From positions 32,001-96,000 of the IMG/VR virus record IMGVR_UViG_3300018080_000116: a stretch of DNA of 64,000 bases; one strand, given 5' to 3'. Position 1 is the stretch's first letter. Each line of letters begins with the position of its first letter. The notes under the pieces are model-generated. The model saw only the letters and a list, made by a program, of their open reading frames with translations, did no database searches and was not told where the DNA came from. Source of the stretch: a virus. This document shows, in pieces, positions 42,920 to 47,504 of this stretch. The translations under genes were made by a program, and so were the position numbers.

Positions 42920-43951
42920 ATGGCCAGGAAAAAGAAGAAGAGAGATGGGCGAGAGATCAGGGCAGAGATTCAGAAGGAGATGACCGAGCGAATTGTGCAG
43001 GCCATCAAGGACGGCAAGCCGCCCTGGCGCAAGCCCTGGAGCAGCAGCCCGAACGCTGGTTGGCCGAAGAACATTGCCAGCAAGAAGCCGTACCGTGGCA
43101 TGAACCCCTTGCTGTTGACCTGTACGTGCATGGACTACGGCTACGATAGCTGTTGGTGGGGCACGTACAAGCAGTGGGGCGACCTGGGATGTCAGGTCAA
43201 GAAGCGGCCCGACGATGTGGAGTATTGGGGCACGAGGATCGTCTACTGGAGCCCGGTGCAGAGCACCCGCCCCAAGGACAAGGACGACCCGGACGGCGAG
43301 CGTGAGAAGTTCACGTGGTTCATGCTCAAGACCTACACGGTGTTCAACCTGGAGCAGGTTGACGACCCGGACGGCAAGCTTGAGAAGTTCGTCATCGACA
43401 AGGAGAAGCCCCAGATCGCCCCCGAGGCCATCGAAGACCCGGTGTTCGATATGGCTCGTGAGGTGATCGCTGCCACCGGTGCCAAGATCAGCCATGGTGG
43501 CGACCGAGCTTTCTACCGATTGCCCCAGCCCTACGAGGACTGGCCGAACCACAAGAGTGGTGACACGATCCGGCTGCCCAAGCCCGAGACCTTCGTGGCA
43601 CCTCAAGATTACTACTACACGGCCTTCCACGAGCTAGGGCACTGGAGCGAGGTGCGTCTGGGCCAGAAGGATGAGAAGTACGCCTTCAACGAACTGGTTG
43701 CTGAAATGGCGTCCTGCTTCATGGCCTCAGCATGTCAGATTCCGCAGTCCGATGTGATGGACAATCACGAGCGCTACATGGCCTCGTGGTTGGGCCGGAT
43801 GGGCGACGACCCGTCCTTCATCTTCAAGGCCAGCACGCTCGCAGCAAAGACCACTGAGCACCTGCTGAGCTACAGCGGCCACGAGGATGTGATCGGCGGT
43901 CAGCATGGCACTAAGGAGCTTGAGGGCGAGGAGCAGGCAGCCGCCGCTTAA
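42920..43951 (+). CDS. ardC: ArdC-like ssDNA-binding/antirestriction protein (DUF1738 plus zincin-like domain)
   Basis: PPWRKPW...P.N..SKKPYRGMN.L.L, WGTYKQW..LG.QVKK, YTVFNLEQ, FHELGHWS, YAFNELVAEMAS. Confidence 0.9.
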   Translation: MARKKKKRDGREIRAEIQKEMTERIVQAIKDGKPPWRKPWSSSPNAGWPKNIASKKPYRGMNPLLLTCTCMDYGYDSCWWGTYKQWGDLGCQVKKRPDDVEYWGTRIVYWSPVQSTRPKDKDDPDGEREKFTWFMLKTYTVFNLEQVDDPDGKLEKFVIDKEKPQIAPEAIEDPVFDMAREVIAATGAKISHGGDRAFYRLPQPYEDWPNHKSGDTIRLPKPETFVAPQDYYYTAFHELGHWSEVRLGQKDEKYAFNELVAEMASCFMASACQIPQSDVMDNHERYMASWLGRMGDDPSFIFKASTLAAKTTEHLLSYSGHEDVIGGQHGTKELEGEEQAAAA

Positions 43952-44289: not shown

Positions 44290-44510
44290 ATTTGTGAGAT
44301 TTATTCTGGATTTTTCTTTTTTGGATTTTCGAATTGATCTCGGGATTTTTCATTTGCGCAGTGGGATTTTAGTCCAGATGTATAACACGTGGTTGGCCTG
44401 GACGGTTTTAAGTGCAGATGTATAAGGGGGCGGCACCGCCGAGCCGGGTGCCCTGGCGGCTGCGCCGCCAGGGCACCGAACCTTTCGGCGTCGAGCCGTG
44501 TATAAGGGGG
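44290..44510. repeat. control block copy B
   Basis: GATTT tract, CAGATGTATAA boxes at 44375 and 44415, hairpin 44447-44477, promoter. Confidence 0.7.
44476..44506 (+). promoter_or_regulatory. class I promoter element
   Basis: CCGAACC-N15-GTGTATAAG. Confidence 0.8.
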
Positions 44511-44561
44511 CGATCCGGCTGGTGCCGGGTGGCACCGGCCACTGACAAGGAGGCCCAAGCC

Positions 44562-44705
44562 ATGACTATGCAAGAACTGAACGACCTGAGCCGCAGGCAG
44601 TTGGAGGCCGAGGCGATCCGCCGTGGCTACCGTCCCGACCCGGACGACACCGACGAAGACCTGCGGAGCGTGATCCACCAGCGAGACCAAAGGAAGGCAG
44701 CATGA
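44562..44705 (+). CDS. 47-aa protein ending in -KAA
   Basis: SD AGGAGG. Confidence 0.75.
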   Translation: MTMQELNDLSRRQLEAEAIRRGYRPDPDDTDEDLRSVIHQRDQRKAA

Positions 44706-44983
44706 TCGTACCGAACGGCGACGAGGCGTATGCCCTGTCCGAGCGATATGACGAGCCGAGCGAGGCTGATCTGTTCGACGTGGACGATGCCCAGGCGATC
44801 AAGGCCAGCAACCGGCAGGCCAAGGTGGGCACCAGGGTGATCTGCCCGACCTGCGGTTGCCGGTTCACGAAGCGATCCTATCAGCACGTGTTCTGCCGGT
44901 CCAAAGGCCGAGGGAACTGCAAGGATCGGTTCCACAACCTCGCCAGCCCGGAGCGACTGGCGAGGGCCAGGGCGTGGTCCTAG
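44702..44983 (+). CDS. small Zn-finger protein
   Basis: CPTCG.RF...FC...C. Confidence 0.8.
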   Translation: MIVPNGDEAYALSERYDEPSEADLFDVDDAQAIKASNRQAKVGTRVICPTCGCRFTKRSYQHVFCRSKGRGNCKDRFHNLASPERLARARAWS

Positions 44984-45156
44984 TACATGAACCGCTGCGC
45001 CTTGATCTTCGCTTGCAGGTCGAGGCGGCGATCTTCGTCGCCGTCTTCGTCCATCCGCATTAGATCGTCAACCTCGTGCCACTCCAGGCCGCAGTAGGTG
45101 CAGCCGAGGTCACGGAAGTCAACTGGCAGGGGTTGGCAGCATCGTGGGCAACGCAT
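44980..45156 (-). CDS. 58-aa Zn-ribbon protein (not in ORF track)
   Basis: hand translation MRCPRCCQPLPVDFRDLGCTYCGLEW...RFMY*; SD GGAG; stop overlaps that of 44702..44983. Confidence 0.7.
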   Translation of the reverse strand: MRCPRCCQPLPVDFRDLGCTYCGLEWHEVDDLMRMDEDGDEDRRLDLQAKIKAQRFMY

Positions 45157-45251
45157 TGTATTCTCCGGGTTAGAGTGTTGGGCGAGCGACCTGCCCGCCC
45201 TTCACTTCCCTTTAGGCACCTGCGGCGGCAAGAAATAAAAAGAAAATTAGA

Positions 45252-45281
45252 CCGAACCTTTTTTGATCTTGTGTGTATAAG
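45252..45281 (+). promoter_or_regulatory. class I promoter element driving the ORF-less RNA cassette
   Basis: CCGAACC-N14-GTGTATAAG. Confidence 0.8.
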
Positions 45282-45474
45282 GGGGCGAACGGTGGGTGAG
45301 CAGCCCCGCAAGTCGCAGCAAGGCACGCTGCGAGCCGTCCCAGGCCGACCCGCTGACGAGGCAAACAGGCCATTCACTGATCCCCGCTCGTCTCAACCGT
45401 TATCAGTGTGGGTTGAGTGGTGTAAGGCGCAAGCCAGGGGGCACACCCAACATGGCGTTGGGAGGTACGAGGGT

Positions 45475-45543
45475 TCGATCATGGTGTAGTGGTAGCACAC
45501 CGGCGTGCAGCCGGAAGTATGGGTTCGAGTCCCATTGATCGTC
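45475..45543 (+). tRNA. aberrant tRNA-like gene (His-like body, 5-nt anticodon loop GTGCA, no CCA)
   Basis: acceptor CGATCA/TGATCG, D arm GTGT-AGTGGTA-GCAC, AC stem CCGGC/GCCGG, T arm ATGGG-TTCGAGT-CCCAT, discriminator C. Confidence 0.65.
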
Positions 45544-45724
45544 TTATCTGCGGTACGACTGCTGGCCCAGAGAGGTCAGCAGGTAGGGAATAGAGTCCTG
45601 TAGGAGTGCGAGATCGCTGCTGTGTACGAGGTGGGGAACCCGGCACGAGTGGCCCTTTGAGCCTACAGGTGAATACCGGAGAACGTCAGCCCCGTGGCGT
45701 TGAGCGTACCAACGAAACATGATT

Positions 45725-45853
45725 CGCTGCTTTGTGGTGTAATGTCAGCACTCTCGCCTTGAGTACCCGAGTCCGAGCCCCTGGTCATGCGGAGGGCAGA
45801 CGACTCGGCGAAATTGGCGGGGGGTCCGGGTGCATAGTCCCGGCTGAGCGGCG
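45725..45853 (+). tRNA. tRNA-like cloverleaf with a 57-nt structured insert replacing the anticodon loop
   Basis: acceptor 45725-34/45844-53, D arm GTGT-AATGTCA-GCAC, stem CTCGCC/GGCGGG, T arm CCGGG-TGCATAGT-CCCGG. Confidence 0.55.
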
Positions 45854-45867
45854 TTTTAAAAATTATG

Positions 45868-45897
45868 CCGAACCCTTTTCAGTTTGGCGTGTATAAG
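45868..45897 (+). promoter_or_regulatory. class I promoter element
   Basis: CCGAACC-N14-GTGTATAAG. Confidence 0.8.
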
Positions 45898-45935
45898 GGT
45901 GCGAACATCACGCACCTTTTAACGGAGTGGTCCCC

Positions 45936-46298
45936 ATGCTGAATCGAAAGATTGCCCTTTACGTCCCTGGCACAACTGACGTGAACGTGCCCGCCCCCGA
46001 GCAGCAGGCAGCCGCCGTTGTCCATGCTCTCGAACAGTTCGCCGAGTGGTTCGGTGGGGCGACCGTGATCGACGGTCAAGGGGCGTGGATGAGCGACGAA
46101 CACGGTCTCGTGGTCGAGCCCGTCCGCATCGTCTACTGCTTCACCGACGCCGAGGGATTGGCCAAGCATCTGAGTGAAGTCAAGCTGTTGGCCCGGCACG
46201 TCTGCCGAGCCATGTCCCAAGAGTGTGTCAGTCTGGAAGTGGCTGGCGAGTTGCAGTTCATCGAAGTCGCCGAGGTCGCCGACGAGAAGGTGGCCTAG
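45936..46298 (+). CDS. DUF3574-like/P-II-fold-like small protein
   Basis: FGGATVIDGQGAW...EP..IV...SQECV pattern; family tentative. Confidence 0.55.
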   Translation: MLNRKIALYVPGTTDVNVPAPEQQAAAVVHALEQFAEWFGGATVIDGQGAWMSDEHGLVVEPVRIVYCFTDAEGLAKHLSEVKLLARHVCRAMSQECVSLEVAGELQFIEVAEVADEKVA

Positions 46299-46308
46299 TG
46301 TCCCATCT

Positions 46309-46337
46309 GAGCCCCCTGGGCATCGCCCAGGGGGCTC
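46309..46337 (+). terminator. hairpin plus T run
   Basis: GAGCCCCCTGGGC-atc-GCCCAGGGGGCTC-TTT. Confidence 0.7.
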
Positions 46338-46370
46338 TTTGAGTGTCCCCTGACCAACGGAGCCAAAACC

Positions 46371-46634
46371 ATGAAGTCGCACGCACGCCCCCGTCTGGCA
46401 GCCGAGACGATTCCGCCGTTGACCGGTGCCTCGGTGATCCAGCCCGGCCACCCGTACTACACTCAGTACGTCAAGTGGCTCGAAGCCCGCAAGGCCGAGC
46501 TAGGCCCCGAGGCAGCCGTGAGCAACAAGCGCAAGGGGCGTTTGTTCTTGGCAGCCCATCCGCACCTGAAGCGCTGTTGGGAAGGCGTGATCCTTCACGC
46601 CCGCCGAATCGAGGCCGAGAAAAAAGCAGCATAA
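46371..46634 (+). CDS. small protein ending in -KKAA
   Basis: SD ACGGAG. Confidence 0.8.
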   Translation: MKSHARPRLAAETIPPLTGASVIQPGHPYYTQYVKWLEARKAELGPEAAVSNKRKGRLFLAAHPHLKRCWEGVILHARRIEAEKKAA

Positions 46635-46636
46635 GA

Positions 46637-46666
46637 CCGAACCCTTTTTCGTTTCGTGTGTATAAG
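46637..46666 (+). promoter_or_regulatory. class I promoter element with rod-like leader
   Basis: CCGAACC-N14-GTGTATAAG; leader stem GAGCAGAAC/GTTCTGCTC. Confidence 0.8.
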
Positions 46667-46769
46667 GGGGCGAACCGAGCAGAACGAAAGACCGGAACAA
46701 GACTAAACAGGTTTGGTTATTCCTGGTTCTGCTCTTTCCTAACCCCCATTCCTTACGGAGACCCGGATC

Positions 46770-47504
46770 ATGTTGCGAAGCGTCGAGAAGCCCAATTCCC
46801 CCGTCCTGTCCGACCCCTTGTTCATCATGGCCATCGTGCCGATCCTCGCCGCCTTCCGCCGCATGGGCGAGCGGATCGCCGATCTGGTGGCCGTCGAAGA
46901 TGACAACCTCGAACCCGTGTTCGACAAGCGGATCGAGCAAAACAACCTGGGCGTGGTCGTCGATGGCCTGTCGCCCGTGGTGATCGAGACCGCCCGCTAT
47001 TCGATGCGAGTCGGCGGCAAGCTGGTTGTCAGTGCCGAAGCCAAGTCCCTGCTGGTCGATGGCGAGTTGTACGACTTCGACATGACTTGTGCGTGGCATC
47101 CCCAGGTCGAAGTCGAAATGCAGGCCCTCTTGAAGCGCCTGAACGTCCCGATCCTCTTGTTGATGGCAGGTCTCGGCTACAACCTGCGGCCCCGCCACGA
47201 GGTCATTCCCGGCCTGCTGGTGATCCACCTGGGCCAGAAGAAGGTCGAGCCCAATTCCGCCGCACAGGCCCCCTTCCGGCCCGCTGAGGCCGCTTCCGAT
47301 GGCCCGAGCGTCATGTACCCCGGCCACCACAACGAGGGCTACCAGCCCGCCCAGGAGCCCGTGCGTTGCTCCTGCCAGGACGACAACCCCTCGTGGGACG
47401 GCCCGAGCAACTGTGCCGGTTGCGAGAACTTCGCCATCTGCCACCCGGCAGCCGCCGCCGAGGCCAACGTGTTCGTGGGAGAGCCGCTTCGCAAGGCCGC
47501 ATGA
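46770..47504 (+). CDS. hypothetical protein ending in -RKAA
   Basis: SD ACGGAG; Cys cluster near C-terminus. Confidence 0.85.
   Translation: MLRSVEKPNSPVLSDPLFIMAIVPILAAFRRMGERIADLVAVEDDNLEPVFDKRIEQNNLGVVVDGLSPVVIETARYSMRVGGKLVVSAEAKSLLVDGELYDFDMTCAWHPQVEVEMQALLKRLNVPILLLMAGLGYNLRPRHEVIPGLLVIHLGQKKVEPNSAAQAPFRPAEAASDGPSVMYPGHHNEGYQPAQEPVRCSCQDDNPSWDGPSNCAGCENFAICHPAAAAEANVFVGEPLRKAA

Follow-up and report, generated by a model that had tools for sequence, protein, structure and literature searches.

Phage tRNAs with altered anticodon loops have been proposed or shown to evade host defences that cut tRNAs (PMC10264068, PMC11464382, PMC11555353). Described examples include the T5 tRNA-Lys, which acts against PARIS (PMC11464382), the tRNAs of mycobacteriophages (PMC10264068) and a case of retron evasion (PMC11555353). 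The element described here resembles these defence-evading tRNAs in that it is tRNA-shaped and differs from cellular tRNAs mainly in its anticodon loop; the presence of the anti-restriction gene ArdC in the same region can be counted as a further likeness. The main difference lies in the anticodon arm itself. Whereas the defence-evading tRNAs have a 7-nt loop and still decode, the element has a 15-nt arm with either a 5-nt loop or a G33, which would suit a decoy rather than a replacement tRNA.

Bacterial Y RNAs (YrlA) also contain tRNA-like modules, which are cut by RNase P, receive CCA and do not decode (PMC4201824). As in these modules and in mascRNA-type signals, the element appears to be non-decoding, combines mimicry of the acceptor, D and T parts of a tRNA and has a reduced anticodon arm. 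However, there is no Rfam match to YrlA in the surrounding cassette, and because no gene for TROVE/Ro60 or RtcB was found in the 138 kb of the partial record, a Y RNA was rejected as an explanation. The mascRNA family is eukaryotic, and the element reaches only a sub-threshold score against its model (RF01684; 25.3 bits compared to a gathering score of 42.5), which we attribute to the short anticodon arm.

Bacteriophage T4 carries eight functional tRNAs in a cluster that is co-transcribed with the stable RNAs C and D. The cassette shares with this cluster the combination of a phage tRNA-type unit with co-transcribed non-tRNA RNA and the (here predicted) release by host processing enzymes. In contrast to the eight functional tRNAs and the stable RNAs of T4, it contains one aberrant element, and stability of its flanks is not supported. 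Finally, the cassette is reminiscent of GOLLD and ROOL, in that a non-coding phage stretch of several hundred nucleotides adjoins tRNA-like sequence, but unlike those RNAs it shows neither a covariance-model match of this kind at E <= 10, nor excess structure, nor homologues in the collections searched. Transfer-messenger RNA, including its permuted forms, was rejected: no Rfam match was obtained, ARAGORN made tmRNA-like calls only at ps70, and the pair G3:U70 is absent.

The window analysed here is a stretch of 64,000 nt, comprising bases 32001-96000 of a 138,192-base IMG/VR virus record that is ~27% complete according to CheckV. Positions are those of the window unless stated otherwise. At 45288-45857 (570 nt), it contains a cassette that lacks an SD-led ORF of its own and is flanked on both sides by copies of a phage promoter that occurs 21 times. 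The parts of the locus are as follows:

45252-45290, plus strand: phage promoter copy, one of 21 aligned same-strand copies in the 138-kb record, consisting of CCGAACC (45252-45258), an 11-nt spacer plus TG, TGTATAAGGG (45274-45283) and GGCGAAC (45284-45290)
45291-45474, plus strand: 5' leader, ~185 nt, non-coding, with stems drawn by eye and no Rfam match above noise
45475-45543, plus strand: tRNA-like element, 69 nt, called tRNA-Ala(tgc) by ARAGORN and matching Rfam RF00005 with 51.2 bits
45544-45857, plus strand: 3' trailer, 314 nt, non-coding, covering the stretches initially annotated as a 'central multibranch domain' (45552-45710) and as 'cloverleaf 2' (45728-45852)
45854-45867, plus strand: T4A5-rich tract, belonging to the next promoter as its upstream AT-rich element
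45868-45906, plus strand: next promoter copy, driving a 120-aa ORFan gene (45936-46298)

The promoter has the form CCGAACCYTT-N11-TGTGTATAAGGGGGCGAAC. Its 21 copies, all on the plus strand, are found in the window between 3026 and 50564 and in the rest of the record. Aligned over the whole record, they share a layout of an AT-rich tract, CCGAACCYTT, a spacer of ~11 nt and TG-TGTATAAGGG-GGCGAAC. The core motif TGTATAAGGG alone has 22 matches in the window when at most one mismatch is allowed (1.5 expected), 21 of them on the plus strand. The GAAC-type -35 element is reminiscent of ECF-sigma promoters. Several copies are directly followed by a perfect 5' hairpin, and two cores, at 44419 and 44499, lie only 80 nt apart, the copy at 44419 being devoid of CCGAACC. 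An N4-like vRNAP promoter system was dropped as a candidate because a 3833-aa ORF (G000:C1:115041-126542, plus strand, on L015), located upstream of a baseplate-wedge homologue (L016:4093-5670), has no PHROG match.

The initial annotation had placed a promoter ahead of a cassette free of SD-led ORFs, and both observations hold. The copy at 45252-45290, preceded by an AT-rich tract at ~45230-45249, agrees with the most frequent form at all conserved positions of the 21-copy alignment, and transcription would be expected to start near 45288. For each of the 21 copies, we located the first SD-led ORF of 30 aa or more on the 3' side. It begins 13-216 nt downstream in 20 of the 21 cases. For the copy with its core at 45274, no such ORF appears until +648, and that one already belongs to the next cassette. 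Being the sole promoter of the 21 without its own SD-led ORF of this length before the next promoter, it defines a cassette that is unique in this genome.

The first of two tRNA-like domains that had been proposed for the cassette, there called aberrant, proves to be a real match to the tRNA model with an arm that is 2 nt short. The 69-nt element scores 51.2 bits against RF00005 (gathering score 29) along model positions 1-71, and ARAGORN calls it Ala(UGC) both at default settings and at ps95; it is the only tRNA that ARAGORN finds in the 138-kb record, which represents ~27% of the estimated genome. The minimum-energy fold of 45475-45543 is a cloverleaf (z = -1.69 when folded alone). Six pairs and a U1·U72 mismatch make up its acceptor stem; G18G19 is present in the D-arm, and GGGTTCGAGTCCC, with the T-loop TTCGA, in the T-arm. 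In the alignment to the model the tertiary core is complete, comprising U8, A14, G18G19, T54-T55-C56, A58 and the G53:C61 pair. Given that the acceptor, the D-arm (G18G19) and the T-arm (T54-T55-C56, A58) are intact, the L-shape and the elbow are predicted to form.

The anticodon arm is 15 nt long instead of 17 (CCGGC-GTGCA-GCCGG). Infernal and ViennaRNA agree on a 5-bp stem closing a 5-nt loop, GUGCA, and ARAGORN draws a 4-bp stem with a 7-nt loop, CGUGCAG, where a G33 takes the place of the U33 that is nearly universal in tRNAs. The element therefore lacks a canonical decoding arm, namely a 5-bp stem and a 7-nt loop with U33. With a 15-nt arm that presents either a 5-nt loop or a G33, it should be unable to decode. 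Position 3:70 is a G:C pair; the G3:U70 pair, an established identity determinant of AlaRS, is absent. No CCA is encoded: the discriminator is a C (45543), followed by TT, and a T occupies position -1. Because the element passes the tRNA model and fails the tests for a decoding arm and for alanine identity, its sequence fits a tRNA-like element rather than a tRNA-Ala.

To place the shortened arm among cellular tRNA genes, we searched for the D-arm and T-arm strings of the element in the genomes of 185,579 species. Fifteen cellular genes, from the genomes of 15 species, share both strings exactly. They encode tRNA-Gly(UCC) and tRNA-Gln and belong mostly to Chloroflexota (Anaerolineae and Dehalococcoidia), with a few from Patescibacteria, a weak hint to the host lineage or to the origin of the gene. 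In all 15, the two strings are separated by 24 nt, compared to 22 in the phage, which indicates that the shortening is specific to the phage copy. Alignment to nine of these tRNA-Gly and tRNA-Gln genes puts the missing 2 nt in the anticodon arm.

The same deficit relative to all 15 cellular look-alikes is what one would see in a decaying pseudogene, a functionless relic of a Gly- or Gln-type scaffold that has lost 2 nt and its first base pair. The U1·U72 mismatch, the G33 and the featureless flanks would agree with such a history. We nevertheless consider it unlikely: the promoter copy fits the consensus perfectly, dead DNA of 570 nt would stand out in an array whose cassettes are otherwise compact, and only the anticodon arm is damaged, its stem remaining perfectly paired, while the nucleotides that form the elbow are intact.

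Beyond the element, the initial annotation had described a large multi-domain fold akin to GOLLD or ROOL. All ten stems listed for it are indeed in place, three of them imperfect or containing G·U pairs, but they are no more numerous than expected from dinucleotide shuffles. Perfect inverted repeats at most 200 nt apart number 26, 6 and 1 for k = 6, 7 and 8, compared to means of 25.9, 6.5 and 1.5 in 500 shuffles, and neighbouring coding DNA contains more of them than the cassette does. The fold of the whole region has the same energy as the shuffles (-230.4 kcal/mol in both cases; z = 0.00), a result that the initial annotation had itself named as counting against its proposal, and the antisense strand gives z = -0.82. 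Separate parts reach z = +0.49 (5' leader part), -1.14 (the supposed central multibranch domain, which has no Rfam match above noise), -1.70 (3' part, 45708-45857) and -0.61 (45728-45852 folded alone). A sliding 100-nt fold scan gave no signal in the cassette beyond what the flanking genes show. The power of these energy and stem-count tests is low, given that the genuine tRNA-like element itself reaches only z = -1.69; they thus fail to support structure in the flanks and do not exclude it.

Covariance models point the same way. A search of the window with Rfam 15 at the gathering threshold produced no match to GOLLD, ROOL or any other large non-coding RNA. When the region and each flank apart were searched at E <= 10, the flanks returned only noise (snoRNA, miRNA and lncRNA models at 10-17 bits), and neither of them obtained an RF00005 tRNA score (a 331-nt search in the case of the trailer). 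The proposed large fold thus finds no support in Rfam, in folding energy or in stem counts. This serves as a warning that stems drawn by eye in GC-rich DNA, and cloverleaves with large inserts, arise here at chance frequency.

Of the two tRNA-like domains initially annotated, the covariance model recovers one. The second, 'cloverleaf 2', is called by ARAGORN only if introns are allowed, as a tRNA-Ser with a 52-nt intron, and its loops TGCATAGT and AATGTCA contain neither the GG of a D-loop nor the TTC motif of a T-loop. With introns allowed, the call is kept up to ps90, where the genome yields 60 calls, and is lost at ps95 (11 calls); 60 calls make it roughly a one-in-ten coincidence for a stretch of 314 nt. 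ARAGORN calls at lower thresholds were discarded as noise, there being 442 of them in 138 kb at ps70.

It is against this background that a composite architecture has to be judged, in which the ~570-nt transcript would be a structured RNA, or a polycistronic array, of tRNA-like modules serving as a multi-headed mimic or decoy. Its modules would lie at 45387-45480 (permuted), at 45475-45543 (the element with the short anticodon arm) and at 45728-45852 (a cloverleaf with a long helix nested at the 'anticodon' position). Several observations speak for this. The flanks are long and non-coding, 45387-45480 folds on its own as a circularly permuted cloverleaf, 45708-45857 on its own likewise gives a cloverleaf-shaped minimum-energy fold, a D-arm-like string, TGGTGTA..AGCAC, recurs at 45735-45751, and the intron-allowed ARAGORN call at 45728-45852 survives to ps90. 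Permuted tRNA-like modules are, moreover, known in bacterial YrlA RNAs (PMC4201824). On the other side, the fold of 45387-45480 has z = -1.0 and a centroid that differs from the minimum-energy structure, and when the segment is artificially re-permuted it reaches only ps80-85 in ARAGORN. Local alignment of the tRNA-like unit to either flank gives p ~0.1, the second cloverleaf lacks G18G19 and the T-loop motif, and 60 equally good ARAGORN calls exist in 138 kb. Taken with z values of -0.6 to -1.7, stem counts at chance level, flanks without an Rfam tRNA score even in short searches at E <= 10, and a 138-kb partial record without a Ro60/TROVE gene, these results make a composite RNA rather unlikely. 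Its most elaborate form is decidedly unlikely: a promoter-driven array of three non-decoding mimics (a circularly permuted one, one whose anticodon loop has 5 nt and one in which a long helix replaces that loop), a new kind of phage RNA that would be matured with help from the CCA-adding enzyme of the phage and supply decoys against a tRNA-targeting host defence.

The TTTT at 45854-45857, previously taken as the end of the cassette, is not preceded by a terminator hairpin, and no terminator-like site was found within 45288-45900. The T4A5-rich tract to which it belongs (45854-45867) is of a type that precedes every promoter copy; it is not a demonstrable terminator. The missing terminator between the cassette and the next gene could be taken to mean that the cassette is a long regulatory 5' leader of 45936-46298, transcribed through the second promoter, with the tRNA-like fold as a processing or stabilizing signal, or that it has a role at the DNA level, such as a transcription-primed origin; the segment at 44-46 kb has a locally elevated GC skew (+0.10) and a low AT skew. 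Both versions are very improbable, since a complete promoter copy precedes the start of the downstream gene by 32 nt, and since the region contains no repeats or iterons besides the promoter copies.

The cassette is non-coding, as judged from its stop codons, the absence of an SD-led ORF and its codon usage. All three stop codons are present in each of the three plus frames, which rules out stop-codon recoding as a way to open a frame. The sole SD-associated start belongs to a 22-aa ORF and has a spacing of 12 nt. When codon usage was scored with 39 long ORFs of the same phage as the training set (training genes, 0.21 +/- 0.06 bits/codon), the ORFs of the cassette reached values between -0.31 and +0.08 bits/codon, within the wrong-frame range, compared to 0.09-0.34 for the flanking genes. 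GC3 periodicity is flat across the cassette, but it is a weak discriminator genome-wide. ORFs of 22-80 aa do exist, yet a hidden small protein, encoded for example by an 80-aa ORF at 45296-45538 or by the 22-aa ORF at 45694, is scarcely credible in view of the lack of a usable SD, codon-usage scores of -0.22 and similar, the overlap of the 80-aa ORF with the tRNA-like gene and the stop codons that leave no frame open to recoding.

Over 12 kb around the locus, the genes are short, lie on the same strand and are nearly all ORFans. Two genes of the record touch on the interpretation of the element:

42920-43951: ArdC anti-restriction homologue, 1.3 kb upstream of the cassette
G000:C1:109486-111033 (L017:13486-15033), minus strand, outside the window: class-II nucleotidyltransferase of 515 aa, matching PF01743 with 87.7 bits

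The latter belongs to the CCA-adding/PcnB (poly(A) polymerase) family; its best NCBIfam matches are CCA tRNA nucleotidyltransferases, all below the cut-offs. The 138-kb record thus encodes an enzyme of the CCA-adding family, yet just one tRNA-like gene, aberrant and devoid of CCA. As judged from its family membership, the nucleotidyltransferase would suit a phage to which the 3' ends of tRNAs matter. Upstream of the cassette, the minus strand (44980-45156) carries a 58-aa ORF with a CxxC...CxxC zinc ribbon, whose ATG is preceded by GGAG at a distance of 8 nt and whose codon usage (0.208 bits/codon) is gene-like. It appears to be the sole minus-strand gene among the plus-strand promoter cassettes, and its stop shares 4 nt with that of 44702-44983, the gene converging on it. 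A template of a DGR or a retron was rejected for the cassette, as there is no reverse transcriptase and no repeat of the region elsewhere in the record; a link to RNA repair was likewise rejected, as the partial record contains no RNA ligase gene.

The window sequence is present in full in one sediment-metagenome run only, probably its source. Over 44400-46700, including the tRNA-like element, a Logan contig assembled from that run shows no differences, and the odd features are therefore not the artefact of one assembler, although both assemblies draw on the same reads. The same run holds a variant contig that is ~88% identical over 44486-44932 and has 182 nt in place of 44615-44808, revealing that a diverged sister strain co-occurs. 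Two other metagenomes, one from sediment and one from seawater, contain pieces of 369 and 276 nt that are identical to sequence in 44486-44854 and do not cover the cassette. Among the runs holding the cassette stretch, none is recorded as RNA.

Homologues of the cassette were sought in several ways. Neither blastn nor megablast found any in the phage database or among plasmids, and the SRA word index returned none. The promoter pattern had three single chance matches in IMG/VR, where the pattern of the tRNA scaffold had none; the promoter and anticodon-arm patterns were both empty over JGI metagenomes. Protein-guided searches with 44702-44983, 45936-46295, 46770-47501, ArdC and the nucleotidyltransferase led only to distant, non-syntenic contigs (L009-L011 and L035). 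Protein searches with the downstream 120-aa ORFan found no relatives, a large search returning only the ORFan itself, and no near relative of the phage is present in the collections searched.

On the best reading, the cassette is a phage tRNA gene turned non-decoding mimic and not a large folded RNA. More specifically, we put it at about an even chance that a tRNA-type gene is transcribed from its own phage promoter, that its product is a tRNA mimic and that the flanks are spacer. By analogy with established tRNA biology, the primary transcript would start near 45288, and host RNase P would cut it before 45475, leaving a U at -1 on the leader. At the other end, a 3' endonuclease or exonucleases would trim after the discriminator C45543, which is followed by UU, as in CCA-less precursors. 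Either the host enzyme or the class-II nucleotidyltransferase encoded by the phage could then add CCA. The RNA released in this way would be ~72 nt long and unable to decode. The 185-nt leader and the 314-nt trailer would be precursor spacers without demonstrable structure, and since no terminator is seen, transcription may read through into the next cassette. The ~500 nt of spacer around a single tRNA are unusually long compared to the otherwise tightly packed cassettes of this phage, a hint that the flanks may matter.

As to function, the mimic would most plausibly be a decoy or competitor for a host factor that binds or cuts tRNAs, because the region is of an early type and adjoins ArdC. 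We infer this role purely from position and shape; otherwise, the element might be a decaying tRNA gene. Selection is favoured, though not proven, by the flawless match of the promoter to its consensus, the complete pairing of the shortened arm and the preservation of the elbow. What stands of the initial interpretation is a promoter-driven non-coding unit with an aberrant tRNA-like element, whereas a new class of large RNA is not demonstrated.

Phage tRNAs are now seen as tools of counter-defence, and those known to us in this role still decode. The present element unites a whole tRNA body, an anticodon arm that looks deliberately short, a strong phage promoter and an anti-restriction gene nearby. 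Were it under selection, it would amount to a tRNA decoy that does not decode, a mechanism for which we know of no demonstration in phages; as no more than a tRNA gene in decay, it would be nothing out of the ordinary. On the best reading, then, what is new here is not a demonstrated class of large RNA, but a phage tRNA gene that has been turned into a non-decoding mimic within a cassette of its own.
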